Below, piece after piece: positions 40,251 to 63,442 of a DNA stretch of 64,000 nt. Location of the stretch: contig CAVYGN010000002.1 of NCBI GenBank assembly GCA_963768055.1, positions 1,600,001 to 1,664,000 of the forward strand, given 5' to 3'. Position numbers and translations under genes: made by a program. The notes below the pieces were generated by a model that saw only the letters and a program-made list of their open reading frames with translations, was not told the origin of the DNA and did not search any database. Source of the DNA: an uncultured Spirochaetota bacterium. Its GTDB lineage: Bacteria > Spirochaetota > Brevinematia > Brevinematales > JAOACQ01. Within the stretch, counting starts at the first letter, position 1. Each line of letters starts with the position of its first letter.

Positions 40251-41021
40251 TTACTCAAGTCTGTAAATCTTACCATCATATTCAAGTTCCTTAAAAACTA
40301 TATCCTTCCCAGTTTCATTATATTCCTGTTTAAGAAATCCCTTATCCATTGGGAGCCAATCATGATCCTGTAACATCATTCCCATTAAAACTTTCTGTGG
40401 GACATATTCTAAAAAACCTTCCTTTGTTTTAATTAAAACATTTGGTTTTGCTTCCCATCGGACTTGAATAAGCCCGGATTCTGAAAGCATCTTAGAAGCA
40501 ATATTTTTGAATAAAAGCAGACTCTGGGGCGCTGTCCCGAACATTCCCCTATTATCGACTTCAAAGACCAGTACTTTATCATACTTTTCGTTTTTACAAA
40601 ACACTGAACATTTCACTATTTTATTCCTGCCCTGGATGTCCCTAATAACTGAAACTACTTCTTCAACCTTCTCCTTATGTTGTCCATAATCCTCCGGCAG
40701 GTCATTAATGACTGTCTGCCAGATTTCTTCTTTAACTAATCGTCCGGCATGACTTGCAATATGGGTATTAAATTTAATGTTATAAAAGCCATCGTTAGCA
40801 GAATCCAGTTTGAGCACTCCAACTCCGAATTCTTCCAGTTCCCGCCAAAGTTTCTGTTCAGCAGGGGTTTTAAGATTTATATACGCCTCAATTAATACCT
40901 GGGGAATTTCCACGTCTGGATTGTCATGTTTATGGGCTAACAGTTTTTCATATTGTGATATAACAAATTCTTCCCCGATTTTGGTATAATCATGAATATA
41001 TTTGAGCTTTATATTATTCAA
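40251..41021 (-). CDS. hypothetical protein
   Basis: 256-aa ORF with GGAGG before TTG start; no motif recognised. Confidence 0.65.
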   Translation of the reverse strand: MNNIKLKYIHDYTKIGEEFVISQYEKLLAHKHDNPDVEIPQVLIEAYINLKTPAEQKLWRELEEFGVGVLKLDSANDGFYNIKFNTHIASHAGRLVKEEIWQTVINDLPEDYGQHKEKVEEVVSVIRDIQGRNKIVKCSVFCKNEKYDKVLVFEVDNRGMFGTAPQSLLLFKNIASKMLSESGLIQVRWEAKPNVLIKTKEGFLEYVPQKVLMGMMLQDHDWLPMDKGFLKQEYNETGKDIVFKELEYDGKIYRLE

Positions 41022-41140
41022 TTTAATGCCTCCAATCTATGGGATAAAAGAGATTATTTTTTAATATCTATCCAATATTTTATTTCTTATTTCAATAAGA
41101 TAATTTTGTTCCTAATAATTATATCACTATCTGGGAAGGC

Positions 41141-43483
41141 TTAAAATTCAATCCTAAAACCTCCAAGAGGCATAATAGAAAAATCTTGTAATTCAGCCTG
41201 AGTTAGTTGCCCATTATTTATGGTGTAATAATATGATATGACATTGTTATAATTTAAAGCATTTAAAACTTCAACATAAAAATACATTTGAGCATATGGA
41301 CCAAAAAATCCTTTTAATAAACCACCTCCTAATGGGATTGTCAATTTTAAATCGAGCCTACAATACCACGGAGTATAAGTACTGTCATAAGCTCCGTAAT
41401 AAATTTCATACTGTGTAGAATTTGTGGCAGGAGTATAAGGTAATCCACTCATAGCTGTTAATTGGACTGTAAATTTCCATTCGTTTAGAAAATCGAAAAA
41501 TAAGGATTGGTCAGGGTTTTTATAATAAGTCATTTCAACAAGGATTGAGATTGTATGTGACCTCAAGTAATCCGGTACAAACCACTGGTCCAGTTGTTGA
41601 GAATAGGGTATATTAGGGTTATCAGGTGAACGATTCGTTATTTCCTCAAGGCCGTATACATAAGTATAAGAAATCCACCCAGAAAGCCAATCACCCTTCT
41701 TTGGCTTTTTTTGAAGGTAAATATCACCCCCGTAAACATTTCTTAGCCCATCATTATTATAATTTAATAAAGAATCTGTTTCATCAAGATCGTAATAATA
41801 CTTGTAGAAGCCTTCAATCCTTAACATATAATCATTATCCGAATAATCCACACCGGTAATAGCATGATAAACCTTCTCGCTTTGAAGATTTGGGTTGCCA
41901 ATATTACTGATCAAATAATTAAACTGGGGAAAATCATGATAAAAGCCTCCTCTTAAATACAAATCAAGTTCTTTTGTGCATTCCAGCTTAATCCCTCCCT
42001 GAGGGTCAAAGGCCGATTCTTTATTCAGGCTGAAATACTCCTCCCTGCCTCCGAGTTCTAGAATAATTGATGGAAAAATTTCCCAGTTATCCATTAGGTA
42101 AACTCCATAATAAGAGGATTGTGATGGGCCATATGAGTAATTAAAATTCTGGTAATTGGATAGGAACCAACCTTGTTGGTTATTGTAAAAATAGTTGTTA
42201 TACTGGTTGGTTTCACAATAAAATCCAGGGTTATCATAAATAATAATTCCGCCAATCTGGATTTTGTGACCCTCGATAGAATTCAAATAATAATCAGAAC
42301 TAAGCTGATACCAGGTATTGTTAAAATTAACGTTTCCAAATAAATACGGTTCTTGACTATAAGTATTGCTTCCGTTCTCAGAAGAATCACCAGCAACAAT
42401 ATCAAAAAAGTCCCCCGAATCGAAACGATGGCTATATTTCAAGCTCCCAATAAAGTTAAGTATCTGATATTGATAGCTTCCTTTAAATCCAGAAAGTACT
42501 TGAGGGTTATCATTGCCGTTCCCAAGGTCCCATTTTTCTCCTTCTAGTGAGAAATAAGCAACAATAGAAAGATTGTCGTAATGTGTAATATCCCAGCAGA
42601 ATTTTGATATACCATCCCATAGATAAGGCCATTCTTGGACCAAAGACCTCTGATTTGTCGGGAGGAAAAGTGGATAATACAGATCATAATAGGTTCTGCG
42701 CATATCAAAAGAGATAGTTAGATTTGATGTTATAGGGCCCTCCAAAAGCACTTCGGATTCTATCGGAGAAATATCGATGAAACCTTTCCATCTTTCTTTA
42801 CTCCCATTAATAGTATCAACAACTATTACACCGGAAAGACCCTGTCCAAACATGGAAGGGTAAGCAGCCGTGTAAAGATTTATGCTGTCAACAAAACTTG
42901 GATTGAACATGGATATTGTGTATATACCGCCACTCCACCTCGTTGGGTTCATGATATAAATCCCATCCATGTAAGCAATCCATTCAGTACTGTTACCACC
43001 TTGAATAAACATACTGCTGTCCATTGCACTACCCCCCGATGAAACACCCGGCATAAGCTGAAGGGTTTTAAAAGAATCATTTATAATACCCTGGGAATTG
43101 GCTTCAATTTCCTCTTTATTTACAGTATTTTCAGTATCTACCCTTCCACTATTTCTTTTTGATTCGATGTTAATCTCTCCTAAAGAATATACTGATGGTT
43201 TAAGGCATATTTCTATATTTAAATCCATGCCATTTATTTCTATAGTATTGGAGTATTTTTCATACCCGGCAAGCATTGCATAAATAGTGTATTTCCCAGT
43301 AGGTATATTTTTGAATATACAGATACCTTTTTCGTCAGTCAAGAGATTTGCATTGTTTTCAAGGATAGAAAGACTGGCGTCTTCAAGAGGGATCCTTCCG
43401 TTGTTAACTTGTACAGTCAGTTCCGCTGAAAAAGAGAGAACATAAATAAAGACTATTAATATTGTGGTCTTCAATCTTTGCAT
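41141..43483 (-). CDS. TonB-dependent receptor-like outer membrane protein
   Basis: Signal peptide, LQLMPGV...FIQGG plug, RRTYYDL, C-terminal GFRIEF; same architecture as 10770-13112. Confidence 0.85.
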   Translation of the reverse strand: MQRLKTTILIVFIYVLSFSAELTVQVNNGRIPLEDASLSILENNANLLTDEKGICIFKNIPTGKYTIYAMLAGYEKYSNTIEINGMDLNIEICLKPSVYSLGEINIESKRNSGRVDTENTVNKEEIEANSQGIINDSFKTLQLMPGVSSGGSAMDSSMFIQGGNSTEWIAYMDGIYIMNPTRWSGGIYTISMFNPSFVDSINLYTAAYPSMFGQGLSGVIVVDTINGSKERWKGFIDISPIESEVLLEGPITSNLTISFDMRRTYYDLYYPLFLPTNQRSLVQEWPYLWDGISKFCWDITHYDNLSIVAYFSLEGEKWDLGNGNDNPQVLSGFKGSYQYQILNFIGSLKYSHRFDSGDFFDIVAGDSSENGSNTYSQEPYLFGNVNFNNTWYQLSSDYYLNSIEGHKIQIGGIIIYDNPGFYCETNQYNNYFYNNQQGWFLSNYQNFNYSYGPSQSSYYGVYLMDNWEIFPSIILELGGREEYFSLNKESAFDPQGGIKLECTKELDLYLRGGFYHDFPQFNYLISNIGNPNLQSEKVYHAITGVDYSDNDYMLRIEGFYKYYYDLDETDSLLNYNNDGLRNVYGGDIYLQKKPKKGDWLSGWISYTYVYGLEEITNRSPDNPNIPYSQQLDQWFVPDYLRSHTISILVEMTYYKNPDQSLFFDFLNEWKFTVQLTAMSGLPYTPATNSTQYEIYYGAYDSTYTPWYCRLDLKLTIPLGGGLLKGFFGPYAQMYFYVEVLNALNYNNVISYYYTINNGQLTQAELQDFSIMPLGGFRIEF

Positions 43484-43608
43484 GTTGAAACTCCGAAGTG
43501 AACAATATATATTTCTATTCAGATAAAGAAGTTATTATTGACAATTAAAGGATAATTTCAAGGTTTACATCTCCGATATTGATAAATTGACAGGACAAGC
43601 GAACCAAG

Positions 43609-44220
43609 TCATAAATCAAATGTTTTTTTTGGCTTCAATTCGTATCCAAGTAAATAATCTGTTGTAACATTAAATAATTCGGCGAGTTTATAAATAATAT
43701 CGGAGGGTGGAGTTTTATCACCTACCTCATAGGATGTTATTGTAGTTCTGTTCAAATTAAGACGTTTTGCAACATCGTCTTGACTAAGATTGTAAAGTTT
43801 TCTTAAATATCTGATTCTGCTACCTGTTGAGATTTTTTTATTTTGACAAAATTCTACGCTTTTTATAGCCGATTCAATTGTGATAATTATATTATCAATG
43901 TTACCACCTTTTTCACAGTAACTTTGTATATCTAATGTATCTAGGGTTTTTAAACCAGGAGCTTCATTACCGTAACCTGTAAGTAATAAAATATAGATAT
44001 CTTTATTGAACTTTCTTATTTCGTTTACTACCCATATGCCATCATGTTCGTCTATACGGTGATCGAGAATTAATATATCATAAAATTCATTTTTAATTTT
44101 CTCTATACCTTCCAGCGAACTCATAACACCATCAATATAGTATTTATCAGATAAAAAAGCTTTTATAGTATTTATAATAGCCGGGTCATCATCAATTACA
44201 AGTATGCGTATACCGTTCAT
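43609..44220 (-). CDS. response regulator with C-terminal Xre/Cro-C1 HTH
   Basis: ILVIDDD, ILILD, LLTG, EK; RIRYLRK..LSQDDVA..L.L.RTTITSYE...FNVTTDYLLG. Confidence 0.92.
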   Translation of the reverse strand: MNGIRILVIDDDPAIINTIKAFLSDKYYIDGVMSSLEGIEKIKNEFYDILILDHRIDEHDGIWVVNEIRKFNKDIYILLLTGYGNEAPGLKTLDTLDIQSYCEKGGNIDNIIITIESAIKSVEFCQNKKISTGSRIRYLRKLYNLSQDDVAKRLNLNRTTITSYEVGDKTPPSDIIYKLAELFNVTTDYLLGYELKPKKTFDL

Positions 44221-45446
44221 ATGCTTGCCACTCCTTTTGGTATTTTTATATAAAAACTTGTATGGTTATCATATGAATCATACGAAATTACCCCATTAAA
44301 CCGCCCGCGTATAATAGTTTGTGCTATATAAAGACCAATTCCAGTGCCTTTATTTCCTTTCGAGGTGCACATATTCACAAATAATTTTTTCCTAATATCT
44401 TCTGGTATTGGATTCCCTTTATTAGTAATTGCAATTATCAATTCATTTTTATTTGCTGTGACAGTCAAATCTATTATTTTGTCATTAGAAGCTTCCATTC
44501 CGTTCGTCAGAATTGTGTTGCAAACTTGAACTAGAGAATCGATATCGCCATTTATTATATAGTTTTTGCATTCAATATTTGTTTTTAAAATAATTTCATG
44601 AACCTTCAGTTCATAGTCCATAAGTAGAAGTATACGCTCTATCAAATCATTTATATTAAAACTGTTAATCTCCTTTTCTTTTACCTCTACGGTTATTGCT
44701 TGACCTTTGACCGCATTTATCACATTAGTCATATAAATGTTGTTGTTATTTATGAGTACTTTCCAATATTCCATCTGTCTCATGAGTAAATCCATAACCT
44801 TAGGGTCAAATGAATTCTCTTTATACAATTGATTAATTTTAGAAATACACTCGTTAATTACCCGTATTCCAGCACTTGAAGTCATTAGAGGAGTTTTTAG
44901 ATTATGAGCCACCCCACCAATAATCTGACTTAAAAATATGAGACGTTCGTTTTCGATTATCTGCTTCTGCCTTTCCTCAATTGCTATTATATCCTGCATA
45001 AGAATATCTTGAGATTCTACAACACGCGAGAATTTCTTATCACTGCTCTGATTGCCATTTATTATTTCTTCCTCATTCAGCCATTTTAAGGCTTTATCAA
45101 CAGAATCAAAAATTTTAATGTCATATCTTTTGGCTACAGCAAATATATTTTGGGCAATGATACGTTGTTCAGGACTATTTACCACTGTAGCACTGCGGTA
45201 TATAATTTTTGCGTTTGGATTTTGCAATGATAGTGCGATTTTTATAGTTACATCCCGACCAAAATCCCATCCAAAATCCTGTACATCAGTTAAAACTTTA
45301 ACTTTACCATTTTGAGCACCAACTCGGCCTATTAGCTCATATAATTCTCTGTAGGCATCGTTCAGTTGGCCGAGTGACATGGTTGTTCGATATTTGAAAT
45401 ATATTATCCCATCATCCCTTAGATGGCAAAGTTTTAACTTTCCCAT
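44217..45446 (-). CDS. soluble sensor histidine kinase with SpoIIAA/STAS-like input domain
   Basis: H-box AHNLKTPL, N-box ILTNGMEA, G boxes NKG and GTGIGL; no TM helix; input domain ends IFDSVDKALKWL. Confidence 0.88.
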   Translation of the reverse strand: MGKLKLCHLRDDGIIYFKYRTTMSLGQLNDAYRELYELIGRVGAQNGKVKVLTDVQDFGWDFGRDVTIKIALSLQNPNAKIIYRSATVVNSPEQRIIAQNIFAVAKRYDIKIFDSVDKALKWLNEEEIINGNQSSDKKFSRVVESQDILMQDIIAIEERQKQIIENERLIFLSQIIGGVAHNLKTPLMTSSAGIRVINECISKINQLYKENSFDPKVMDLLMRQMEYWKVLINNNNIYMTNVINAVKGQAITVEVKEKEINSFNINDLIERILLLMDYELKVHEIILKTNIECKNYIINGDIDSLVQVCNTILTNGMEASNDKIIDLTVTANKNELIIAITNKGNPIPEDIRKKLFVNMCTSKGNKGTGIGLYIAQTIIRGRFNGVISYDSYDNHTSFYIKIPKGVASI

Positions 45447-45940
45447 TATAACTTTCCTTTTTTAACAAAACTTTCAGGGATTTTTGTTTTCAATAACTCG
45501 TATAGATCGGGGGCTTCTTTTTCTATTCTGACTGGTCGTTTAACAGAATTAAGCCATACATGTGAACTTATGGCGGTGACGACAAGTTCTGAACTTTTTG
45601 CTTTTTCTAAATCTTCGGGTTTTAGAGTATTTGCTCCTTGAATTATATCAAAATTAACTCGTCTAACCTCATACTCAAAAGAGAATCGAAGGCTCTGCAT
45701 GTCTTTTATTTGTGTAAATATAACTATGTTATCATCAAAAAAAGCAGGCTTTTTATACTGGATGGAAAGATCGGTCACGATTATGAATATTCCACGTTTT
45801 TCCATCTCTGCATACGAGAACCCGTACTGTTTAATTATACTTGATCTAGCCAGTTCCAACCATGGCAAATAACTACCGTGATAAACAATGTTCTGTGGGT
45901 CGCATTCGGGATAGCGGACATTTAAACAATAAGTAAACAT
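45446..45940 (-). CDS. hot-dog-fold acyl-CoA/ACP thioesterase (YbgC/4HBT family)
   Basis: VRYPECDPQNIVYHGSYL.W.E.AR, YKKPAFFDD. Confidence 0.9.
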   Translation of the reverse strand: MFTYCLNVRYPECDPQNIVYHGSYLPWLELARSSIIKQYGFSYAEMEKRGIFIIVTDLSIQYKKPAFFDDNIVIFTQIKDMQSLRFSFEYEVRRVNFDIIQGANTLKPEDLEKAKSSELVVTAISSHVWLNSVKRPVRIEKEAPDLYELLKTKIPESFVKKGKL

Positions 45941-46131
45941 TTTCACAACCTCACGATTTTTAAACACTTAATTATAACTTTTTTAATGAATATGTCTAAA
46001 AATTTCAACAAATTTGAAAAAATATTTTCAAATATTATTGACATTTAAAATAATGCAACATATTATATAATAATGTCTGTATTCATGGCATTTTTGCGAT
46101 AATTGTTATAATAATTTGCACAATTTAATTC

Positions 46132-46199
46132 AAAAAAGTACTTTAATACAAAAAAAGTACTTGAGTACTATTGACACTACACGATTTTATTTTTAAGAT
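46132..46199 (+). promoter_or_regulatory. promoter of the biosynthetic operon with upstream direct repeats
   Basis: AAAAAAGTACTT at 46132 and 46151, AGTACT at 46164, then TTGACA(46171)-17 bp-TAAGAT(46194); a second candidate TTGACA-17-TATTAT lies at 46038-46066. Confidence 0.6.
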
Positions 46200-46534
46200 G
46201 ATGACACTAAAAATTCTAAGCAGTTTATTTAAGAGTAAATTTATGAGAAAGTCCAGGCGATTGATTCAATTAAAGTGTTTTGATATTGAGATAATATTTA
46301 GGTTTAAAAAAATATAAGGAAAGATTTAAAAGTTTGTACAGCTAAACAAAAAGAAGTCAGGAAATATTTAATTTATTTAAACGTAAATTGAGTTTACTTG
46401 AGTTTGTTAAAAATGTAAAAAATCATTTGTATTGAAATGAGTTTGAATAATAGAATGTCAAGATCTTGGAAATGCAGATTCGATTTGACTAATTTTCCAT
46501 TATTTAAAGGTTAAAATATTTTGTGTGAGAAAAA

Positions 46535-47233
46535 ATGAAAAATAATCGTATTATTATTGGAATCATTGATAGTGGTGTCGACAGAAGGTTTATTATTGAA
46601 AATGGTGCTAAAATTAAAAAAGCGTCCGCATTTAATATAATACAAGAAAGCCGACTTGTAGAGTGTATTGAATATAGTAAAAAAGATATAAAAAAATGGC
46701 TAGCTGGAAAAATCGATCATATATCGGATGAACATGGCCATGGGACTTCTGTTCTTTCTATAATTTGGGGAATTTTACCCAATGCTGAATTCGTGGTTTC
46801 AAAGGTTCTTGACCATGAAAAAAAAGGATATTCGATATGCCTTGTAGAAGCGCTTCGTTGGATGATAGAAAAAACTGATGTCCTTATAATAAATATAAGC
46901 ATTACGACAAATGATACAAATATTAAGGATGATATGTTAAAACTTGTCAAAGAAGCAAAAAAGAAAGGTATAGTTATATATTCAGCGAAAGATAATGAAT
47001 ATAGTATACCTGCTTCTGTTGATGGTGTTGTTTCAGTAACTGATTTTTTAACAATAAATAAAGTCGGGCAATATTCTCTACTAAAATCGGACGTTGTAAT
47101 TGAAAAAAAGGAAGAATTAATTTGGTGGGAAGGCGAATGGATTCAAGATCCTATTAAACCAAGTTGGGCTTGTGCAGTAGCTGTTTCTAAAAAGTTTGAA
47201 ACTGGACATAATTTTAAAAAGAGATTTGTATGA
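46535..47233 (+). CDS. compact cytoplasmic S8 (subtilisin-like) peptidase
   Basis: IIDSG (Asp), DEHGHGT (His), IINIS, PSWAC (Ser); no signal peptide. Confidence 0.8.
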   Translation: MKNNRIIIGIIDSGVDRRFIIENGAKIKKASAFNIIQESRLVECIEYSKKDIKKWLAGKIDHISDEHGHGTSVLSIIWGILPNAEFVVSKVLDHEKKGYSICLVEALRWMIEKTDVLIINISITTNDTNIKDDMLKLVKEAKKKGIVIYSAKDNEYSIPASVDGVVSVTDFLTINKVGQYSLLKSDVVIEKKEELIWWEGEWIQDPIKPSWACAVAVSKKFETGHNFKKRFV

Positions 47234-49134
47234 AAAATAAAAATTTAAATTTACCATCTACATTCGTTTTAAAAAATTATACTTCTAAATATTATTTTGA
47301 TATTAATGCATTATTTTGGAACAGTTTATTCTCAGAAAAATATTTAACTAAAATTTTTCAAGAAATCAAACTTAGAAACAAAATAACAGATTTTGAGGAA
47401 ATTTATTTTGATTATCTTATTGTTAATATTTCAGCTATAAAAAGTATGATGTCTGATTGTTATGTCTATAAATATCTTGAAAAAAATGTCTATTTATGTT
47501 TTAAAGTATTCTATTTGATAGTAAACATATTTAACCTAATTAGTTCAGATCATAGAATTTCCTTGTCCTATGGAATATCTTACTTAAAAGATATCAGTAA
47601 TATTTCTTTAAGTATAAATAATATTTTTATAAATCAATTTTTTGATGATATACTGAATAACAGCTTTTTTGAAGATAATATTCAATATAATATAAATATT
47701 CATTGGGAAAATGAATTATATAGTTTAATTCTTTTATCTATTAAATTACGTGAAAAATTTAAAAATGTTAGAGTTATAGTGGATTTCAGTCAAGTAAATG
47801 AACAGGTAGATTTTACTCAATGGATTTCTAATAATAATATCAGACAATATATAGATAACTTTAATAATATATATCATGAAGATAATCATAAAATTATTAA
47901 TGCTAATTATCATATTGGTGACGTGTTTAAAACAAAAAATATAGGGACTAGATTATTCAATACAAAGTGTTATTGGAATAAATGTTCTTTTTGTACAATA
48001 AATTCAAGGCACAAATCTGATCATACTTTTAATTCATTAACAAAAGAAGCAAAAGAGATTGTTGATAGCTTTATTAAAAGTATTTTAAATTATAATGAAT
48101 TAATTTATATAACTTTTTCTGATGAAGCTATTGAAAGTTCAATATTATTATATTTTGCGGAGCAAATTATAAACCAAAACATTAATATAAAATGGATTGC
48201 AAGGACAAGATTTTCTAATATTTTTACTTATGAAAACTGTAAAACATTATCTCAATCTGGATTGAAAATGATTGGTTTGGGTCTAGAGTCTGTTAATCCG
48301 AGAATATTGAGTCTTATGAATAAAAGAGAAAAATTCTATGATACTCAAGAATTGAATCGTATTATTGGTAATTTCGACCAAAATAATGTAAGTGTACATA
48401 CATACTTTATTATTGGTTTCCCATCTGAAACGAAAAAAGAAACCAAGCAAACACTAAATTTCATTGATTATAATCTCAAAAAAAGAAAGTACTTTACATA
48501 TTCAGCTAATAGGTTTTATCTAATGAAAGGGTCGAAAATTTATAGTAATCCGAAGGAATTTGGAATTGAAATAATCGATAAAGGTGAAGATGTTAAAATA
48601 GGTAATATCAATTATATTGATCAAAATAAAGGTCATAAATACAGCAGAGAAGAAATATTATTTTTGTCTAAGAAAGCTTATTCGAAAATGTTTTTTAAAA
48701 AAGTTAATAACAATTATTTAATTATATTAGGATGTAATTTCTGGGATTTTATTGATAGAACAGCATTATTTTATATTCATAAATATTACAATGAATTGAA
48801 TCCTTATTTTAGAAGAAATAAAAAAAGGATAAAACTTCATGATGAAGATCTTGATTCATTTTATAAAATTATCAGCATTCCTATTTATAAATTAAATCCT
48901 TTGATATATTTTGATATTATTAATGATAGATATATTAGGATTAAAGAAATATTAAAAAATCTTTTTTATAAGTTTATTAATTCTTATAACACAAAATTAA
49001 CACTCAGACAGAATATTTATGAAATATTACAAAAATTAGATTATAAATGTTCTAATAAGCAAATTAATTTATTTAATAAAATGATAATTCAATTAATTGA
49101 TGATGCATACTTGTATAGGATTGAAAAATTGTAA
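47230..49134 (+). CDS. radical SAM protein, B12-dependent-class-like core
   Basis: CYWNKCSFC, FSDE, GLESVN.RIL.LM.K, IIGFPSET; overlaps the peptidase stop (ATGA). Confidence 0.85.
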   Translation: MKNKNLNLPSTFVLKNYTSKYYFDINALFWNSLFSEKYLTKIFQEIKLRNKITDFEEIYFDYLIVNISAIKSMMSDCYVYKYLEKNVYLCFKVFYLIVNIFNLISSDHRISLSYGISYLKDISNISLSINNIFINQFFDDILNNSFFEDNIQYNINIHWENELYSLILLSIKLREKFKNVRVIVDFSQVNEQVDFTQWISNNNIRQYIDNFNNIYHEDNHKIINANYHIGDVFKTKNIGTRLFNTKCYWNKCSFCTINSRHKSDHTFNSLTKEAKEIVDSFIKSILNYNELIYITFSDEAIESSILLYFAEQIINQNINIKWIARTRFSNIFTYENCKTLSQSGLKMIGLGLESVNPRILSLMNKREKFYDTQELNRIIGNFDQNNVSVHTYFIIGFPSETKKETKQTLNFIDYNLKKRKYFTYSANRFYLMKGSKIYSNPKEFGIEIIDKGEDVKIGNINYIDQNKGHKYSREEILFLSKKAYSKMFFKKVNNNYLIILGCNFWDFIDRTALFYIHKYYNELNPYFRRNKKRIKLHDEDLDSFYKIISIPIYKLNPLIYFDIINDRYIRIKEILKNLFYKFINSYNTKLTLRQNIYEILQKLDYKCSNKQINLFNKMIIQLIDDAYLYRIEKL

Positions 49135-49276
49135 CTTATATAATAATAAATAATAAAATTAAACGTAAAAACATATTAATTGACATTATGATTGAAAATT
49201 TTACAAACCTTATAAAGTTAAGATTTTTATTAATGAAATTCCCGGTTGGAGATAAAATAGGTAAAAAGGAGTATTT

Positions 49277-49516
49277 ATGAAGAAAAACCCTGTCAGGTTT
49301 TATGACATTCCTGAGTCATTAAAGGAAATTTATGCTCTTGGTTCTGGTAGCGGTAATAGTGGTTCTGTAGCAGGAGATTGTTGTTCTGTTACTAATACAA
49401 CTTCTACTTGTGGTTGTGTTGGCTGGATGGCAAGTGCTAATACAACTTGCCAGACTAATACTTTTTCCTCTGCATCATTCTTTAAGAAACCACCCGCAAA
49501 AAGAATAATTAAGTAA
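49277..49516 (+). CDS. putative RiPP precursor peptide (79 aa, 5 Cys, Ser/Thr/Gly-rich)
   Basis: AAGGAG RBS; charged leader, GS linker, core DCCSVTNTTSTCGCVGWMASANTTCQTNTF, basic tail; lies between radical SAM genes. Confidence 0.82.
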   Translation: MKKNPVRFYDIPESLKEIYALGSGSGNSGSVAGDCCSVTNTTSTCGCVGWMASANTTCQTNTFSSASFFKKPPAKRIIK

Positions 49517-49585
49517 TATCTTAAAACAATAATTTCAAGTTAATTATCTCCAGCTGGGAAAATTATATTAAAGAGAGAAAAGAAT

Positions 49586-50695
49586 ATGAAATATACAATA
49601 ATATTAACTCAAAAGTGCAATCTAGCATGTAAATACTGTTTTGAACATAATAAAGAGAATAATTATCTTAAAGAAAATATGATACCTTCAATCTTAGGAT
49701 TTATTAATTATTATCAAAATCAAGAATTTGTTTTAGATAAAAATATATCGATAGTTTTTAATGGCGGAGAACCACTTCTTAATTTTACAGTATTAAAAAA
49801 ATTACATATTGCTTTGGAAAAAATTGGTGTTAACGATTTTTCGATTTCTACAAATTTAACATTATTAACAGATGAAATTATTACTTATTTATATAATAAC
49901 AAGTTTATTTTACATATTAGCCTTGATGGAACTAAAGATATTCATAATAAAAACAGAATCTTCAAAGATGGAAAAGGAACATTTGATATTGTTTATAATA
50001 ATGTTGTGAAAATTAGGAAAAAATATCCTGATTGGAATAATTCATATAATATTACAATTTCTCCAGGCACTGTACATGATTTATATAATAGTTTTAGATT
50101 ATTAACAGATTTGGGTATAAGGAGAATTACAGCTGCATATTGTGCGGATTATGAAATGAATGAAAATAATATAGAAATATTCAAAAATGAAATGAGAAAA
50201 ATTAGTAAGGATTATATTGCTTTCTATGAAAATAATGAAAATATCTATTTTAAATTTTTAACCGATGGTATTTTATACACAATAAATAATAAAAAAGCAG
50301 CATGTGGAGTATGTAAGAGCGAAATTGCTATATTACCTTCAGGTGAAATATTGCCATGTGTGGTTTTTGTTGGACAAAATAATTATAGAGATTACATTTT
50401 AGGTACTTTGAATAGTTCATTGAATTATAATAAAATTAATATGCTTTTAGATAAGAAATTATTTAATTTGTCTGAATGTAATAATTGTAGTTTACTTCAA
50501 AGATGTTTTGTTGAATGTTATGCGGTAAACTTAAGAGTTATGGGGAATTTATTTGATATACCAGATTGCTATTGCCATATCAATCAGATTTGTTTACAAG
50601 AAGCTGAATATGTTATTAATGATTTATATAATAAAAAGAATAAACTATTTATTAATCAATATAATCTTAGCAAATTAAATAAAGAATCAATTTAA
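49586..50695 (+). CDS. radical SAM/SPASM peptide maturase
   Basis: CNLACKYC, FNGGEPLL, ISLDG, SPASM CG..GEILPC..CNNC.....CFVEC...CYC. Confidence 0.9.
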   Translation: MKYTIILTQKCNLACKYCFEHNKENNYLKENMIPSILGFINYYQNQEFVLDKNISIVFNGGEPLLNFTVLKKLHIALEKIGVNDFSISTNLTLLTDEIITYLYNNKFILHISLDGTKDIHNKNRIFKDGKGTFDIVYNNVVKIRKKYPDWNNSYNITISPGTVHDLYNSFRLLTDLGIRRITAAYCADYEMNENNIEIFKNEMRKISKDYIAFYENNENIYFKFLTDGILYTINNKKAACGVCKSEIAILPSGEILPCVVFVGQNNYRDYILGTLNSSLNYNKINMLLDKKLFNLSECNNCSLLQRCFVECYAVNLRVMGNLFDIPDCYCHINQICLQEAEYVINDLYNKKNKLFINQYNLSKLNKESI

Positions 50696-50714: not shown

Positions 50715-51836
50715 ATGTATGGATTAATATTAACTGAGAGTTGTAATATGTCATGTAAATATTGTTTTGAAAAACATAAAAATTATGGTCGACAAATGAA
50801 TGATGAAATAATTATTAGTGCTGCTGATTATATTGTTAAAGACTATATAAATAAAGGTAAAGAAGATTATTTTGTAGTTAATATTACAGGTGGAGAACCT
50901 TTCCTTAAATTTGATCTTTTGAAAAAATTATTACTAGAAATAAAAGAGAAAATGAGTATTAATAAAATTAAGCAATATTCGTTTGAAATATCAACAAATG
51001 GTACAATAATAAACGAAGGTATAATAAAATTTATTATAAAAAATAATATTAGATTATTTGTTGGATTCGATGGTATTAAAAAAAGTTATAATGAAGGGCG
51101 TTTTTTTAAAGACCAACCAGGTGTTTATAATATTGTTTATAAAAATATTTTAATATTAAAAGAAAAGGTGAATAAAAATAATATTGTTTTGAATCTGGTT
51201 ATTACTCCAGAGAATGTACAATATTTAAATCAAAATATTAATTTTATGTATATTCTTGACTTACAAATGTCAATTACATTTGCTTATGAACAAGAGTGGA
51301 GTGAGAAATCTATTGTAATATTGAGAAAAGAGTTTCTAATATTTCTTAATTTTTATAAAGATATTGTTAAAACAAATCATGATTTTAGTATTGGATTAAT
51401 TGATAAAACTATAAAACAATGTTTATTTCCTCGTAATTATTATCCTGGTATATGTAGTGCTGCAGAACCCCAACTTGTTATTTTGACTGACGGCAACATT
51501 GTACCTTGTGGCAGTTTTTGTTATATACAGGATAATAATACTGATTTTATTATTGGAAATGTATTTCAAGGAATAGATGAGAATAAACGTTTAAAATTCA
51601 GAAAGTCATTAGAAAATATAGATTTTGAGGAATGTAAAGGTTGTTTATTTATAAATAAATGTACTAATTACTGTACTGCCATAAACTATCTTGTAACAAA
51701 TAATACTCAAGAAATACCAAGTTCTGTTTGTGAAATTAATAAAATATTGATTACCGGATGTGAATTATTAATTGATAATTTGACTAAAGAAAATAGTAAC
51801 TATATAAAAGAGAAATATTTAAAAGAGGTTGATTAA
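50715..51836 (+). CDS. second radical SAM/SPASM peptide maturase
   Basis: CNMSCKYC, TGGEP, STNG, SPASM CSA..GNIVPC..CKGC.....CTNYC...C. Confidence 0.9.
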   Translation: MYGLILTESCNMSCKYCFEKHKNYGRQMNDEIIISAADYIVKDYINKGKEDYFVVNITGGEPFLKFDLLKKLLLEIKEKMSINKIKQYSFEISTNGTIINEGIIKFIIKNNIRLFVGFDGIKKSYNEGRFFKDQPGVYNIVYKNILILKEKVNKNNIVLNLVITPENVQYLNQNINFMYILDLQMSITFAYEQEWSEKSIVILRKEFLIFLNFYKDIVKTNHDFSIGLIDKTIKQCLFPRNYYPGICSAAEPQLVILTDGNIVPCGSFCYIQDNNTDFIIGNVFQGIDENKRLKFRKSLENIDFEECKGCLFINKCTNYCTAINYLVTNNTQEIPSSVCEINKILITGCELLIDNLTKENSNYIKEKYLKEVD

Positions 51837-54179
<2,343 letters not shown>

Positions 54180-54257: not shown

Positions 54258-54761
54258 ATGTTGGATTTGGCTTATTTAAATATTGGAACTTTGAAACAAT
54301 TGTATATGCAGTACATCAAAAAAAATGAAAATAAGTATTATTTGATTGACTTCTTTAGTAACTACGATATTCAAATCGATCCAAATGATTGGAATCGAAT
54401 TCAATATGTTAGTAAAGATTTTAACGGTAATATCATTGCTTATTTTGAAGCAAGAATAAATCGAGGATTTAATATTATTAATGATTTAGAAATATTAAAA
54501 TTTATTGAATATCCCAATATAATATGGATTCATGATTTTATCAGATTTCTCAAAGTGTTATTGCTTGAAAAAAACTTCAGAAAAGTGGTTTTTTATGCTA
54601 TCATAGACAACCCATCTTTTACAAAATGTGAACTATATTTATTGAAGTATAAATTGGTTAAAGAAGTTGGTGTAATGAAAAACCATTGTATTCTTAATGA
54701 TGGAAAAATTTATGATATGAAAATTTTTGAGATTGAAAGAGATAATTTAGGAAAATGGTAG
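54258..54761 (+). CDS. GNAT-family N-acyltransferase (RimJ/RimL-like)
   Basis: GNIIAY, NFRKV.F....NP, EVG.MK.H..L.DGK.YD..IFEI; GGAGG RBS. Confidence 0.8.
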   Translation: MLDLAYLNIGTLKQLYMQYIKKNENKYYLIDFFSNYDIQIDPNDWNRIQYVSKDFNGNIIAYFEARINRGFNIINDLEILKFIEYPNIIWIHDFIRFLKVLLLEKNFRKVVFYAIIDNPSFTKCELYLLKYKLVKEVGVMKNHCILNDGKIYDMKIFEIERDNLGKW

Positions 54762-54767
54762 AAAATA

Positions 54768-55541
54768 ATGATTTTTAATATTTTATTAAAACTATCAATA
54801 AGAAATCTTTTTCGTCATAAAACAAAGAATCTGCTCGTTGTCCTTATGATCATGACGGGCTGTTCCCTGTTTTTTATAGCTTCCTCGCTTGAATGGAATA
54901 TCAGGGATAACTGGAGGCATTACCTTTCAGATACGGTCTTGGGAGATTACTATATAACTTCGATAACGGGGATCGGCGACGATTACCGTTTTTTTAACAC
55001 TGTCCCGCCGCTGAAATTTATCAATAAGGAAATTATTGATTTTCTCGACAGGAATAAAATTCAATATTCATGCAGGATAAGGACCGGGGCAAAGTATTAT
55101 GATGAGAAGCTCGGGTTTCGGGATTTCAACAAATTCCTCGGTATAGATTTTTTAAAGGAGGAAAAGATCCTCTCCAATATATTGATTTATGACGGCACAT
55201 TCGAACCTGCCTCAGATAACGGCATGGATTTTTTCTGGAATCCTTCCTGGAATTATCAGCCGCCGGTCGGGACAAACCTTGTGGTATTAATTCTTGCACT
55301 TGCCGGATATCTGATTGGTGTATTCATCGGTGCTTTGTCAGGCAGTATAATTGAAAATATGCGGATATACCTGGTGTTCCAGGATTATATGAACGGACCT
55401 GTAATGTTCATTCATTCCTTTTGGGATTTTCTCTACATACTGCTGTTCATATTATTACTGACAGCGGTTTGGAGCATTCCGGTAATTAACCGGATCGTCT
55501 CGAAAGCCCCCGCGAGGGTATTCAGGGAACAATCGTATTAA
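54768..55541 (+). pseudogene. FtsX/MacB-type ABC permease, internally deleted
   Basis: Typical N-terminus LSIRNLFRHK.K and partial periplasmic domain joined directly to the last TM helices; 257 aa versus the usual ~400 or more. Confidence 0.6.
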
Positions 55542-55552
55542 TTGGAGTATTT

Positions 55553-56326
55553 ATGAAGAATTGGATTTTACTTATTACAGCGGCAGTATTAACGGCGGTC
55601 TATTCATTATCTTATTGTATCGATCCGGGCGATGTTATTTCTAAATCCGATAAGCGATTTATACCGGATATATTCACTTATAACATGACCCTCCGGACTA
55701 CTTCGGCAAACGGCAAGATTGATGTAGTGGATTATAAGGGGAAAAAGAAACACGAAAATAATATAATGATCACAATAAATCCGGTCAGTGCAAGGGGGCA
55801 GGTCAACCTGAAAAACAGGAACGTGATATGGAGTTACTTTCCTACCTCGGATACAAGTATAAAGTATAGCTACCAGGCAATAATCCTGGGGACGTCGGTA
55901 AGTTACGGCGACATCCTGGCGCTTGAGCTTTCCCGCGATTATGACGTCCGGTCGATGATCGAAACCTCGAGCCTCGAAACCAATGGCCTCGAGGATCCGG
56001 CCTCGACGAATAAGTTTTATCTGCTGACGCTTGGGCCTAAAAAAGATGTCGACGGATATGCGAAAATATTTTTGTGGATAAATACGGCGAACTTTCTGCC
56101 TGTTAAGAGGCAGTACTACGCTTTATCCGGGCTCCTGGTGAAATCCTGCGAGATACAGGGTATTTCCTTCGATGATAAAGGCGTTGTAAGCGAGTGTAAA
56201 GAACTGTTTTATGAACCCCTGAAACAAAAGCAAACCCTGGTAACCTTTTCCAATGTTATTATTATGAGTGATATTCGCGATAAGACATTCAATCCGAAAG
56301 CTATGAAATTTTTCAGCGGAGAGTGA
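55553..56326 (+). CDS. outer-membrane lipoprotein-sorting (LolA-like) protein
   Basis: Signal peptide; IWSYFP, ILGT.VSYGD, Y.LTL.PK..Y.KI.LWI...FLP.K..YY..SG.L.K. Confidence 0.78.
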   Translation: MKNWILLITAAVLTAVYSLSYCIDPGDVISKSDKRFIPDIFTYNMTLRTTSANGKIDVVDYKGKKKHENNIMITINPVSARGQVNLKNRNVIWSYFPTSDTSIKYSYQAIILGTSVSYGDILALELSRDYDVRSMIETSSLETNGLEDPASTNKFYLLTLGPKKDVDGYAKIFLWINTANFLPVKRQYYALSGLLVKSCEIQGISFDDKGVVSECKELFYEPLKQKQTLVTFSNVIIMSDIRDKTFNPKAMKFFSGE

Positions 56327-57579
56327 ATTTGATTAAAATTTCAATCTTTATCCTTCTGCTTTTTCTTCCCATGGAGCTATTTTCATTGGATATAAGCTCA
56401 GTCATAAACACCGGTTTCGATGTTCAATCGGTTAACAGCAATTCGCTGCTTTACCCGCTGAATTTGCTTCAGAGCGGGGGTTACACGAACGAGGGCTTCG
56501 ATTACTATGTCAATGCCGATGTAATAATGAAAAGCGCGATGGGCGAGATCGGGAAGGGTTATCTGGATGTCAGATTCAGTTATTATCCGAAAACATTTCT
56601 TACAAATACCCCCTGGCAGTATTTTAATATTGTTGAGGGTTATGCTGACCTGGCGACCGAGGACTTTTTGCTGCGCATAGGGAAGCATTTCATGCACTGG
56701 GGCGATGGGGTCGCTTTTAATCCCGTCGATATAGTGGATTTGAGAAAAGATCCCCTGTCATATACCGGATATGACCAGGGGAAGCCGGGGGCTGATATAA
56801 CGGTTCCCATAGGTGATTTCAGTTCTTTTTCAGCTTTAAGCGTTGTCGACAGCACATTAACTACGAACATTGACAATCTGCCTGCCATATTGCAATATTT
56901 CTTATCGATAGATATGTTCGACGGGTTTATATTCGCCGATTTTCAGAAGAATTACAAGCCCGAATATGGCGGCAACATCGATTATGTCATGTCTGTAAAA
57001 AATAATATAAATTTAAAACTATATTCCCAATTAACCTACAGAGAGGACAGCTACCGTGAGTTCGCCGCCGAAACGAATGGAGTTCCGTACCTTGAAAATA
57101 TGACCAACAATTACTACGCTGCCTGGGCTGTAGGCGGTAATCTTACCTTTTCTTTTACAGAGACGCCGTTGATCGACGGTATAATAATTTCCGCCGAATA
57201 TTATTACGATGACGAGAACTGGAGCAAAAACGCTTATCAGAATTTCCTGTCGTATATAGATGCGCAGACGAATAATAATAATGTTCCCGCATATATGAAC
57301 GCTATGCTGCAGGAGCAATACCTCAGGAATTCTAAAAGCTATTTTTTTTCAGCGCTTACTTTCCAGGGGCTGTTTGATAAAGATTTCAGCCTGACCGGTT
57401 CTGTGGTCCTTAACATTGACGATCTGAGTTTTGTAATTTATCCCTCGATGTCGTATCAGATCAACCTGGATACCAGGATATCGATAGGAGCCCAGTTTTT
57501 TTGCGGCGGCCAGGACAGCGAATTCGGCAGTATGTCGCAGCTTTTTTCCGTAAACGCCAATTTAACGGTTTCATTTTGA
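56323..57579 (+). CDS. putative outer-membrane beta-barrel protein
   Basis: EGYAD..LRIGK...WG.G..FNP.D, SEFG, C-terminal LTVSF. Confidence 0.65.
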   Translation: MNLIKISIFILLLFLPMELFSLDISSVINTGFDVQSVNSNSLLYPLNLLQSGGYTNEGFDYYVNADVIMKSAMGEIGKGYLDVRFSYYPKTFLTNTPWQYFNIVEGYADLATEDFLLRIGKHFMHWGDGVAFNPVDIVDLRKDPLSYTGYDQGKPGADITVPIGDFSSFSALSVVDSTLTTNIDNLPAILQYFLSIDMFDGFIFADFQKNYKPEYGGNIDYVMSVKNNINLKLYSQLTYREDSYREFAAETNGVPYLENMTNNYYAAWAVGGNLTFSFTETPLIDGIIISAEYYYDDENWSKNAYQNFLSYIDAQTNNNNVPAYMNAMLQEQYLRNSKSYFFSALTFQGLFDKDFSLTGSVVLNIDDLSFVIYPSMSYQINLDTRISIGAQFFCGGQDSEFGSMSQLFSVNANLTVSF

Positions 57580-57595
57580 AACAAAGGAGCATCTC

Positions 57596-58266
57596 ATGAT
57601 TAAAATCAGTGGTGTAGAAAAGACCTATTATCTTGGAAAATCTACGATCGAGGCGTTGAAGGGAATAAATGCAGCTTTTAATAAAGGCGAATTTACATCC
57701 GTGGTCGGGCCGTCGGGCAGCGGAAAATCCACGCTGCTTAACATTATAGGCTGCCTTGACAGGCCTGATCGGGGAGAGGTAGTAATAAGCGGTGAAAATA
57801 TTACCTCTTTAAAAAGCAACAGGCTTGCCGATATCAGGGCCGAAAAGATAGGCTTTATATTTCAGTCCTTTAACCTTATACCTGTCCTAATGTATATGAA
57901 AATATCGAGCTGCCTTTGAATAATATTAATAAATACAAATCGAAAAAGGAAAAGAGGGACAGGATCATAGAACTCATAGAGCATGTAGAGCTTGGCTGTT
58001 ATTTAAAGCACAGGCCTGAGGAGCTTTCAGGAAGCCAGAGGCAGCGCGTGGCTATCGCCAGGGCCCTGGTTACGAATCCTGAAATAGTCCTTGCCGACGA
58101 ACCGACGGCAAACCTCGATTCTGAAACAGGCAGGATGATAATAGAACTCATGAGAAAGATCAACAGGGACTACGGCACTACATTTATATTTTCAACCCAT
58201 GACTTGAATATAATGAAATATGCCGAAAGAGTGTTAAATCTAAAGGATGGAAGAATTTTTAACTGA
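57596..58266 (+). pseudogene. LolD/MacB-type ABC ATPase with 1-bp frameshift
   Basis: GPSGSGKST; one missing A near 57889 breaks IPVLNVYENIELP; second half has LSGSQRQR, LADEPT, STHD. Confidence 0.85.
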
Positions 58267-58309: not shown

Positions 58310-58843
58310 ATGCTAGAACTAGCATACTTAAATCAAGAAAAGTTACAAGATATTTATTCAAAAAGGATTACTTCTAAATTTAATAAGTATTATTTTTTTG
58401 AAAGTTATTATGATTATATTTTACCAATTGACCAAAATGATGAAAAAAAAATACAATACGTTGGAAAAGATAATGAAGGCAATATAATCGGCTATGCAGG
58501 TGCATGGATTAATCGTACTCATAATATTATTGAAAGGATGGAAATAATAAATTTTACAGAAAAGCCAAAATTAGAAGGATCAAGGAATTTATTTGATTTT
58601 CTAGAAATTATTCTTATCAAAAAGAATTTTAGAAAAATTGTTTTTTATGTGGCTGTAGAAAATCCAGCTATTAAATTGTATGAGAAATTCATGAATTTTG
58701 GAGAAGGAATAGGGAAAAAAGTTGGTATTTTAAAAGAACATTATACTCTAAATGATGGAAAGAATCATGATGTTGCTATATTTGAAATTTACAGGGAAGG
58801 TTTTACAGAATGGTTTAGAAAAAAAATAAAAAAAGACTTTTAA
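58310..58843 (+). CDS. GNAT-family N-acyltransferase (paralog of 54258-54761)
   Basis: MLELAYLN vs MLDLAYLN; IQYV.KD..GNII.Y; ENPAIKLYEK; VG.LK.H..L.DGK. Confidence 0.82.
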   Translation: MLELAYLNQEKLQDIYSKRITSKFNKYYFFESYYDYILPIDQNDEKKIQYVGKDNEGNIIGYAGAWINRTHNIIERMEIINFTEKPKLEGSRNLFDFLEIILIKKNFRKIVFYVAVENPAIKLYEKFMNFGEGIGKKVGILKEHYTLNDGKNHDVAIFEIYREGFTEWFRKKIKKDF

Positions 58844-58911: not shown

Positions 58912-59172
58912 ATGATAAAAGAAGATTTCAAAAACATTAATGAATTAATATTTGAACTAAAGAAAATGATTTCAAGTCAAATCAAATTACAAGGAGAAGA
59001 TTTCGATGAAAATAAGGATTTTGTCTCCGACTATGGAGTAGATTCTCTTGATTTGCTTTTATTGATTTCGGAAATAGAAGATATTATGAAAGTGAGAATC
59101 GAAACAGAAGATGCTGAAAAGATGAGGACTTTTGCAGATGTAAGAAAATATGTTGAGAGTAAATATTTATAA
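58912..59172 (+). CDS. acyl carrier protein
   Basis: Acidic 86-aa protein with GVDSLD phosphopantetheine site; GAGGAGG RBS. Confidence 0.92.
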   Translation: MIKEDFKNINELIFELKKMISSQIKLQGEDFDENKDFVSDYGVDSLDLLLLISEIEDIMKVRIETEDAEKMRTFADVRKYVESKYL

Positions 59173-62515: not shown

Positions 62516-63442
62516 ATGGAAATTAATCCCACAATGCCGACCGTTTTTAAGGGAGTTATCCGGCCAAAACATTATACCAAATTCTGTCGTTTTCTCGGGA
62601 ACAGCAGCCAGACAATCAGATCTTATATGACTTCTTTAAAGGCTTTCAAAATATTTATAAACAAAGATATATACCAGGTAACAAAAAAAGACGTCTTTGA
62701 TTATCATGTTTATCTGGAAGTTCAGACTTCGGAATTCAAATTGGCGGCCTCTACTGCTCGCCTCCGGTGGTATGCCCTTAATAAATTTTTCAAGCTGGCT
62801 ATGGCTGAAAATTGGATAAGGTATAATCCAATGGTTGAAGTTGAAAAGATTTCGTCAAATTTAAAATTGCCCTCAGCTATAAATGATATTGAACTTCCTT
62901 TAGTTGATGGCAAAAGTTTTAATCGGGAAATAATAAATAAGGCAATTGAATTATCTGAAGATCAGCGTCTCACAATAATAATAAAGCTATTATCAAGGAC
63001 CGGTGCCAGAGTTTCGGAAGTACTAGGGTTGAAGTGGGGTCATGTGATCACCTTTGGAAATGATGTGATTTATACATTTCTAGGAAAAGGTAAACGAATC
63101 CGGGATGTAAAAGACTTTGATGGGAAACAGCTATTTGAAGAAATGAAATTAGTATTCAGCCCTGAAAGAACAAATCGGGATGATTTTATCTTTATAAATG
63201 AAAAAGGAAGAGTATTCAAATACAGTGCTCTTTATATGAGAATACGCTGTCTTTTTGAAAAAAACTTTTCTACAGATCGCCCTGTTTCCCCGCACAAGTT
63301 CAGGCACTTTCTTATAACCTATCTTTTAAATGAAGTTAAACTACCCTTAAAAACTGTTCAGAAAATTGTCGGTCACAGATTCTCAATGACGACAATAAGA
63401 TATGACCACCCTCCGGAAATAAAATATAATGTAGGGGTTTAA
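62516..63442 (+). CDS. XerC/D-like tyrosine recombinase
   Basis: SAM-like N-domain; TGARVSE, GKG, PHKFRH, VGH, TTIRY (complete R-K-H-R-H-Y set). Confidence 0.92.
   Translation: MEINPTMPTVFKGVIRPKHYTKFCRFLGNSSQTIRSYMTSLKAFKIFINKDIYQVTKKDVFDYHVYLEVQTSEFKLAASTARLRWYALNKFFKLAMAENWIRYNPMVEVEKISSNLKLPSAINDIELPLVDGKSFNREIINKAIELSEDQRLTIIIKLLSRTGARVSEVLGLKWGHVITFGNDVIYTFLGKGKRIRDVKDFDGKQLFEEMKLVFSPERTNRDDFIFINEKGRVFKYSALYMRIRCLFEKNFSTDRPVSPHKFRHFLITYLLNEVKLPLKTVQKIVGHRFSMTTIRYDHPPEIKYNVGV

Follow-up and report, generated by a model that had tools for sequence, protein, structure and literature searches.

A candidate RiPP precursor family beside paired SPASM radical-SAM enzymes in Spirochaetota

What is made from a short, cysteine-rich open reading frame (ORF) lying between two radical S-adenosylmethionine (radical-SAM) enzyme genes? 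This question is raised by the ORF at 49277–49516 of a 64,000-nt stretch of DNA from an uncultured Spirochaetota bacterium (assembly GCA_963768055.1, contig CAVYGN010000002.1, positions 1,600,001 to 1,664,000). We call the whole stretch the window; its own coordinates are used below, and features lie on the + strand unless marked otherwise. The ORF encodes a 79-residue peptide, which a first-pass annotation had read as a precursor with a leader, a Cys/Thr core and a cationic tail, possibly modified by two neighbouring SPASM enzymes. Our analysis indicates that the peptide very likely belongs to a new and very rare precursor family of RiPPs (peptides synthesised ribosomally and modified post-translationally), with three known members, all in Spirochaetota. 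The best explanation of the locus as a whole, to which we give a probability of about 60%, is a new RiPP family whose product is thioether-cyclised, acylated by a GNAT-type enzyme (Gcn5-related N-acetyltransferase), and exported.

The precursor gene and its relatives

The spacer between the two radical-SAM genes is 451 nt long, and the precursor ORF occupies most of it. ORFs of at least 79 codons arose by chance in 77 of 5000 shuffles of this spacer and in 50 of 5000 random sequences with the composition of the flanks. A Shine-Dalgarno-like AAGGAG (49266–49271) can be read 5 nt ahead of the ATG, and GC content by codon position is 0.34/0.55/0.24 in the ORF vs 0.19–0.23 in its flanks; ribosome-binding site and codon-position GC both fit a coding gene, and are suggestive of one. 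We take the ORF to be a real gene because a homologous small ORF, with the leader kept, stands in the same position in two other gene clusters. These are in the genomes G008, from another genus of the same family, and G159, from another family. All three clusters that carry the pair of SPASM enzymes described below (A and B) have a small Cys-rich ORF beside it, always directly upstream, with A followed by B. The check put forward in the first-pass annotation, conservation beside homologous radical-SAM genes, thus gave a positive result in two further genomes.

From translation and alignment, the peptide divides into a leader (residues 1–21, 49277–49339), a flexible Gly/Ser(Thr) linker (residues 22–33, 49340–49375), a core (residues 34–67, 49376–49477) and a cationic tail, FFKKPPAKRIIK (residues 68–79, with the stop codon 49478–49516). 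The core has five Cys (C35, C36, C45, C47 and C58), a single Trp (W50) and three N-T motifs, TNTTSTC (39–45), ANTTC (54–58) and TNTF (60–63); Ser, Thr and Asn make up 17 of its 34 residues. The tail holds four Lys (K70, K71, K75 and K79). The features listed in the first-pass annotation all stand as listed.

The relatives encode peptides of 82 aa (G008) and 70 aa (G159). An N-terminal K-x-x-V-[KR]-x-Y is common to all three peptides, and a further leader motif, LKEI[YH]xLG, to those of the window and G008. The leader alignment of these two scored 54, vs −15 ± 9 in shuffles, a score reached by none of 2000. All three peptides have a Gly-rich spacer ahead of the first Cys, the counterparts of the window linker being GTGSGSGTGTGTGG in G008 and GGGG in G159. 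With moderate gap costs, four Cys of the window core (C36, C45, C47 and C58) align with C39, C52, C55 and C61 of G008, and both peptides have an N-x-x-C (N55-x-x-C58 and N58-x-x-C61). A pattern read from the sequences, C-x3-TNT-x-S-x-C-x-C, is common to the window and G159 peptides. Across the three cores, Cys alone among residue classes is kept as a scaffold, and the three peptides have no Lys position in common. In these sequences the leader is conserved and the core varies around a Cys scaffold, as is classic for RiPPs. The earlier division into leader, linker and core agrees with the segments that are conserved and those that vary. The tail fared differently: G008 has one (FMFQPLVKKTK; similarity to the window tail was reached by 29 of 2000 shuffles), and the G159 peptide lacks it, so that the cationic tail holds for the window and G008 but not as a family-wide part. 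None of the three peptides matched an NCBIfam or Pfam family, the SCIFF peptide model included; one match at chance level (E 0.05) was the sole exception.

The precursor ORF is also bracketed by an inverted repeat in all three clusters. In the window its arms are 17 nt long and 88% complementary; the 5′ arm (49239–49255) ends 22 nt ahead of the ATG, and the 3′ arm (49544–49560) lies 28 nt past the stop codon and 26 nt ahead of the next gene. The repeat of G008 is of 15 nt and 93% complementary (locus L011, 12149–12163 and 12442–12456), that of G159 of 19 nt and 100% complementary (locus L060, 8484–8502 and 8757–8775). The repeat sequences are unrelated and their relative positions alike: the 5′ arm ends 22–26 nt before the start codon, leaving the ribosome-binding site unpaired, and the 3′ arm falls 7–28 nt past the stop, just ahead of the next gene. 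Flank-to-flank duplexes had energies of −31.2 (window), −25.7 (G008) and −29.4 kcal/mol (G159); among 1000 shuffles, 0, 8 and 1, respectively, came as low. The flanks of the 13 other ORFs in the window cluster gave duplexes of −7 to −17.8 kcal/mol. The minimum-free-energy fold of 49225–49575 is closed by the bracketing stem (z = −4.64). No Rfam family matched in 48900–49900, and no intrinsic terminator was found in 45900–50000. The repeat is probably a stem between the 5′ and 3′ untranslated regions (UTRs), which probably serves either to free the precursor message from the operon by excision or to stabilise it. Excision of this kind would be like that of rRNAs by RNase III, which is encoded in all three genomes. 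Our search of the literature on bracketing repeats around RiPP precursors found no description of such a stem.

Candidate enzymes for cross-linking, acylation and export

SPASM enzymes A (49586–50695, 369 aa) and B (50715–51836, 373 aa) were assigned from family models, motif alignment and a tree. The radical-SAM motif CX3CX2C (C11/C15/C18) and the 7-Cys SPASM motif (C240, C258, C298, C301, C307, C311 and C330) are invariant in all four of the enzymes aligned. The six SPASM enzymes of the three clusters fall into two orthologous groups, with support of 100 and 99, and it is always a group A enzyme that adjoins the precursor. The best NCBIfam match of A and B was PapB (E 4e-52), followed by QhpD, CcpM and the SCIFF maturases, and the nearest solved structure was CteB (E 1e-41). 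CteB was matched only from chain residue 102 onward, and we therefore regard A and B as lacking a RiPP recognition element (RRE), the leader-binding domain. The earlier call of two neighbouring SPASM enzymes is borne out: both carry the full 7-Cys motif of true SPASM enzymes and are nearest to thioether formers.

By analogy with these nearest matches, thioether rings are the best-supported chemistry for A and B, and probably the right one, with cyclophane or other links as the rival. Known ranthipeptide acceptors include Asn, Thr and Asp, and an NxxC motif can give a Cys-Asn β-thioether, according to the available portion of PMC8326336. N55-x-x-C58 would be the best single candidate for a thioether pair in the window core. 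The first-pass annotation had offered cyclophanes at W50 or Phe as an alternative. That option is weakened, in that neither relative has any Trp and cyclophane families matched at E ∼1e-21 to 1e-15, vs 1e-52 for PapB.

Two GNAT paralogues, 43% identical, are encoded in the window, one of 167 aa (54258–54761) and one of 177 aa (58310–58843), the latter recognised from a family model and a structure model. The second adjoins an acyl carrier protein (ACP) gene (58912–59172; family models, DSL serine motif), which is followed by a FabF-type, elongating ketosynthase (KS) with Cys-His-His motifs (59237–60448; family models, motif). GNAT2, ACP and KS are contiguous, and G008 keeps their order. The GNAT assignment comes from a Pfam Acetyltransf_1 score of 22.6 bits vs a cut-off of 20.7, and from a family structure model (mean predicted confidence, pLDDT, of 64) with a Foldseek match of the SpeG type (E 4e-10, template modelling score, TM, 0.59–0.67). 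A GNAT of this same private family accompanies the precursor in 3 of 3 clusters and directly adjoins it in G159. Since no Lys position is shared by the three peptides, the new N-terminus would be favoured as the acceptor of the shared GNAT, which leaves the tail Lys residues as candidates for the second. Precedents for GNATs that load RiPPs with ACP-bound or fatty acyl groups come from the accessible parts of PMC8784127, PMC13647313 and bioRxiv 10.1101/2023.10.25.564083.

The conserved core module of the three clusters consists of GNAT, precursor, A, B, a ChaN/Tiki-like protein and an ABC exporter. Beyond this module, the window and G008 clusters have an S8 protease, a 634-aa radical-SAM enzyme as the third of its kind, a second GNAT, ACP and KS, the cationic tail, a PDZ domain and a Lol-like module. 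It is because of this added set that we infer a product that is probably lipidated.

The short, subtilisin-like S8 protease (46535–47233), whose nearest family is QhpE, shares its D12/H69/S210 triad with G008 and is a candidate leader peptidase. The 634-aa enzyme (47230–49134) has private N- and C-terminal domains, and only its radical-SAM core finds matches, to PhpK, HpnJ and MiaB of the B12/methylthiotransferase clade. No B12-binding Pfam domain matched in it, and a sequence search found no relative in the PDB. Its structure model is poor (pLDDT 55), with Foldseek matches that mix B12 enzymes and MiaB at a TM of about 0.2. The enzyme has CX4CX2C (C247, C252 and C255; CYWNKCSFC in the window) in place of the canonical CX3CX2C, as do four homologues (C-[YS]-W-N-K-C-[SN]-F-C).

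Between B and the first GNAT lies the gene of a 780-aa protein (51837–54179) whose N-terminus is hydrophobic. The protein has a CarboxypepD_reg-like domain, a ChaN/Tiki-like domain at its centre and, at the C-terminus, a PDZ domain of the DegP/RseP type. The central domain resembles ChaN/Tiki-superfamily clusters (Protein Atlas 0.94), an assignment that serves as a lead only; Protein Atlas gave nothing usable on the whole protein. A 533-aa protein of the G159 cluster shares this central domain (36% identity over 207 aa, E 7e-28) and has no PDZ domain. The cationic tail co-occurs with the PDZ domain, S8 protease, third radical-SAM enzyme, ACP/KS and Lol-like module in the window and G008, and all of these are absent from G159. 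Since PDZ domains bind C-termini and tail and PDZ domain occur together, the tail may be a handle for the PDZ domain, a lead suggested by what amounts to about two independent cases.

Export would involve two sets of genes. An MsbA/HlyB-type ABC exporter (60473–62269; family models) lacks a C39 peptidase domain: it aligns to positions 164–708 of the 710-position NHLM ABC1 model, the peptidase part excluded, and in Pfam it matches only ABC_membrane and ABC_tran. A double-glycine/C39 export route was rejected on this ground. The Lol-like module comprises FtsX-type permeases, a LolA-like periplasmic carrier (55553–56326; PF17131, E 9e-22), a probable outer-membrane barrel of 418 aa (56323–57579), whose N-terminus resembles a signal peptide and whose C-terminal residue is Phe, and a LolD/MacB-type ABC ATPase (57596–58266). 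A module of this composition would suit lipidated cargo in a diderm cell.

The Lol-like module of the window is damaged. Comparison with G008 shows a fused remnant of two FtsX-type permeases (54768–55541, 257 aa), in which residues 1 to ∼170 match permease 1 of G008 (67% identity) and residues 173–257 match the end of permease 2 (71%), a loss of about 1.7 kb compared with G008. A frameshift near 57890 divides the ATPase gene, which is intact in G008, into two ORFs here. All other window cluster genes are full-length relative to G008. Export by the Lol-like route may therefore have been lost in the window genome.

The proposed pathway and its rivals

In the pathway we propose, the leader (K-x-x-V-K/R-x-Y … LKEIYALG) would present the peptide, by way of the flexible Gly/Ser linker, to the RRE-less enzymes A and B. 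These would abstract hydrogen from a residue of the Ser/Thr/Asn type and link that residue to the thiolate of a Cys bound at an auxiliary Fe-S cluster, and the outcome would be several non-α thioether rings of the ranthipeptide type. The 634-aa radical-SAM enzyme would add a further modification. The leader would then be removed, in or after the Gly-rich linker, by the S8 protease, the Tiki-like protein or both. Acylation of a free amine by a GNAT would follow, the new N-terminus being the most likely site and a tail Lys a possible one for the second GNAT. For the window and G008, the cluster ACP would carry the acyl group and the cluster KS would extend it. The lipidated product would cross the envelope by way of the ABC exporter, the LolA-like carrier and the outer-membrane protein, and the PDZ domain may grip its cationic C-terminus. 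The 5′UTR–3′UTR stem around the precursor mRNA would serve in its excision from the operon or its stabilisation.

A fuller version of this proposal is tentative and rather doubtful: that the system is the first class of radical-SAM (ranthipeptide-type) RiPPs to carry a lipid, combining an RRE-less SPASM pair, ACP/KS-fed GNAT acylation at the N-terminus and perhaps Lys, PDZ/Tiki handling, a LolA-like route and a stem that excises or stabilises the mRNA. If it were true, a radical-SAM thioether scaffold joined to cluster ACP/KS and GNAT would be a new way to gene-encoded lipopeptides, from Spirochaetota. The system also raises the questions of how two SPASM enzymes recognise a leader with no RRE, what role a PDZ/Tiki-like protein has in a RiPP pathway, and whether the bracketing stem sets the precursor-to-enzyme ratio. 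Should the chemistry fail, a well-delimited new precursor family of three members remains.

Among known systems, the closest in layout are the ranthipeptides (freyrasin/PapB, SCIFF/CteB, NxxcA/NxxcB), which likewise have a Cys-rich core beside SPASM enzymes with the full 7-Cys motif, and whose Asn/Thr-type acceptors have candidate counterparts in the window core, the NxxC motif included. The present enzymes differ from them in scoring below all curated cut-offs, in being kept as a pair, A and B, and in having no RRE. The precursor matches no NCBIfam or Pfam model, and the clusters bring in GNATs and a Tiki-like protein, plus ACP/KS and Lol-like export in two of them. The acylation genes recall the GNAT-acylated RiPP lipopeptides (goadvionins, lipolanthines, lipoavitides and selidamides), in which a GNAT-fold enzyme is likewise found in a cluster with ACP and ketosynthase. 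In the accessible parts of PMC8784127 and PMC13647313, the goadvionin GNAT uses an ACP-bound acyl chain and selidamides are acylated at Lys/Orn side chains. The chemistry of those lipopeptides, as far as the available portions of these accounts extend, is of the lanthionine/avionin kind, in place of the radical-SAM/SPASM cross-linkers found here, and Pfam and NCBIfam scans found no lanthionine- or avionin-forming enzyme domains among the cluster ORFs. The GNATs here are, moreover, of a private family with two paralogues, and their acylating role is predicted.

Quinohemoprotein amine dehydrogenase (QHNDH) maturation (QhpC/QhpD/QhpE/QhpF) offers a third likeness, since it too has a Cys peptide that bears a leader, a thioether-forming SPASM enzyme, a short S8 protease and an ABC exporter. 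It is unlike the present system in that here there are no dehydrogenase subunits, scores fall far below the cut-offs, the core is variable, and GNAT and ACP/KS are added. The N-acetylated daropeptide aphotorhaptin, as cited in PMC13647313, is reportedly a radical-SAM-cross-linked RiPP whose N-terminus is GNAT-modified after leader removal. Its ether and C-C links and its acetyl group differ from the predicted thioethers and probable ACP-borne acyl group here, and its precursor and enzymes are unrelated. By analogy, then, the system appears to work most like a ranthipeptide pathway with a goadvionin-like acylation module and QHNDH-like logic, outside every curated family tested.

Several findings weigh against the proposed pathway. 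PapB scores were 177.6 and 177.4 bits for the two enzymes vs a cut-off of 340, the SCIFF maturase score was 113 vs 425 and that of QhpD 134 vs 453. All family scores of A and B are thus below curated cut-offs, so thioether chemistry is the nearest analogy and membership is not established. The S8 protease scored 58.8 bits with QhpE vs a cut-off of 165, and the model of the 634-aa enzyme shows neither a cobalamin-binding nor a leader-binding domain. Core-plus-tail similarity between the window and G008 was reached by 111 of 2000 shuffles, a weak result, and the N-x-x-C motif is absent from the G159 peptide. On the acylation side, four of the five GNAT family members have no Pfam match at E 0.001, which with the model's pLDDT makes for modest evidence. 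The acyl-chain genes of the cluster are limited to ACP and KS, with no acyltransferase, ketoreductase, dehydratase or enoylreductase. Because the G159 cluster lacks ACP and KS, fatty acylation is not a family-wide trait. A GNAT could instead acetylate the peptide or confer immunity. Co-occurrence was seen in three clusters only, two of them close kin, leaving about two independent cases. Finally, given the damaged Lol-like module, the pathway may be decaying in the window genome.

Some of these points also feed rival explanations. A real precursor might be processed by A and B into something other than thioethers: cyclophane or ether links, epimerised residues, or Cys/Ser oxidised as by anaerobic sulfatase-maturating enzymes (anSMEs). 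The sub-threshold scores leave room for this, cyclophane formers, DynA and anSME also match (E 1e-15 to 1e-27), and the window peptide offers W50 and four Phe. We nonetheless think it unlikely, in view of best matches that are consistently thioether formers (PapB, QhpD, CcpM, SCIFF, CteB), of Cys as the only residue class held across the cores, and of the absence of Trp from the other two peptides. It is doubtful, though possible, that no lipid is attached at all, the GNATs acetylating the peptide or protecting the producer while a different lipid is produced and exported by ACP/KS and the Lol-like module. G159, with its GNAT and neither ACP/KS nor Lol module, would fit this, as would the GC content of the export module (∼40–45% vs 23–27% for the biosynthetic genes), a hint that the two differ in origin; the available part of PMC13647313, moreover, cites a radical-SAM RiPP that is N-acetylated. 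Lipidation, however, is favoured by the contiguity of GNAT2, ACP and KS, conserved in G008, and by an interleaving of GNAT1 and the export genes with the RiPP genes that is ordered alike in both genomes. The G008 island is bounded by hydrogenase maturation genes and therefore arrived as one unit.

Two further rivals concern whether a RiPP is made here. The window cluster might be a decaying, horizontally acquired island whose intact ORF makes no product, as the fused permease pair, the frameshifted ATPase and a cluster GC of 24%, vs about 44% in the rest of the window, beside an integrase, would suggest. We consider this quite unlikely: the precursor, S8 protease, three radical-SAM genes, Tiki/PDZ protein, both GNATs, ACP, KS and MsbA-type exporter are full-length vs G008, the bracketing stem is intact, and the ATPase frameshift could be a sequencing error. 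Extremely improbable is a cross-linked small enzyme subunit, comparable to QhpC in quinohemoprotein amine dehydrogenase, even though QhpD was the second-best match of enzyme A and QhpE the best of the S8 protease. Both scores are far below cut-off, and the core is hypervariable between relatives, unlike a structural subunit. The QhpC-like subunit was rejected when no dehydrogenase partner subunits were found among the cluster ORFs. An acylated, thioether-cyclised and exported RiPP remains the reading we prefer.

Distribution, island and neighbouring genes

G008 carries the whole cluster in the same order, sharing all 15 other cluster genes; the G159 cluster comprises GNAT, the 70-aa Cys-rich peptide, SPASM A, SPASM B, the 533-aa protein, HlyD and an ABC exporter. 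When the peptide and a two-peptide profile were run as word-index searches, only the window and G008 came back, as they did in an exhaustive search of 1.84 billion protein representatives with a two-sequence profile. The latter missed the G159 peptide, and more divergent members may therefore exist. Among the six-frame ORFs of 46 loci (hmmsearch, E ≤ 1), the only hits were copies of the window and G008 peptides. The N-terminal 240 residues of the 634-aa enzyme, used as a query, found only themselves; a scan of genome contigs found the G008 contig only; and a metagenome scan gave 14 loci, all distant (21–42% identity), none of them with a related peptide.

In a sample of 401 genomes of the phylum, the 634-aa enzyme is full-length only in G000 and G008. 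An A/B-like enzyme at E ≤ 1e-40 occurs in 12 of the 401, the tandem pair only in G000, G008 and G159, and the GNAT family in five. No Cys-rich small ORF was found near the weaker GNAT loci (in G305 and G205, and a second locus in G159), and no similar peptide near the single PapB-like enzymes of other relatives (loci L005–L010). Searches of the literature on lipidated radical-SAM RiPPs, and on RiPPs with SPASM, acetyltransferase and ketoacyl enzymes, genome-mining supplements lying outside their scope, turned up no description of this system.

The cluster block has ∼24% GC vs ∼44% in the rest of the window, and a tyrosine recombinase gene (62516–63442; family model) lies at the edge of this low-GC island. 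The Lol-like export module (54.77–58.27 kb) stands out at 40–45% GC, with genes of 23–27% on either side; the boundaries coincide with the first and last genes of the module, which suggests a mosaic origin of the island. In G008 the cluster is inserted between hydE/hydG and hydF (L011 15506–17981, L047 5048–7620), which limits it to the genes from S8 protease through ABC exporter. With the recombinase flanking the window cluster and the insertion among the hyd genes of G008, we conclude that the cluster behaves as a mobile unit. Just upstream of the island in the window, 40251–45967 (− strand) encodes a YbgC/FadM-type acyl-CoA thioesterase, a histidine kinase, a helix-turn-helix response regulator and a TonB-dependent receptor; these genes do not adjoin the G008 cluster.

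Two metagenome contigs, L033 and L034, encode distant homologues of the 634-aa enzyme (29–32% identity), N-terminal domain included. TGA is read through in both, and a GGEP motif appears only if TGA is taken as Gly, which points to translation table 25. The L033 homologue adjoins a SPASM enzyme and large ORFs (590 aa and at least 438 aa) that, from the impression their sequences give, look YcaO-like.

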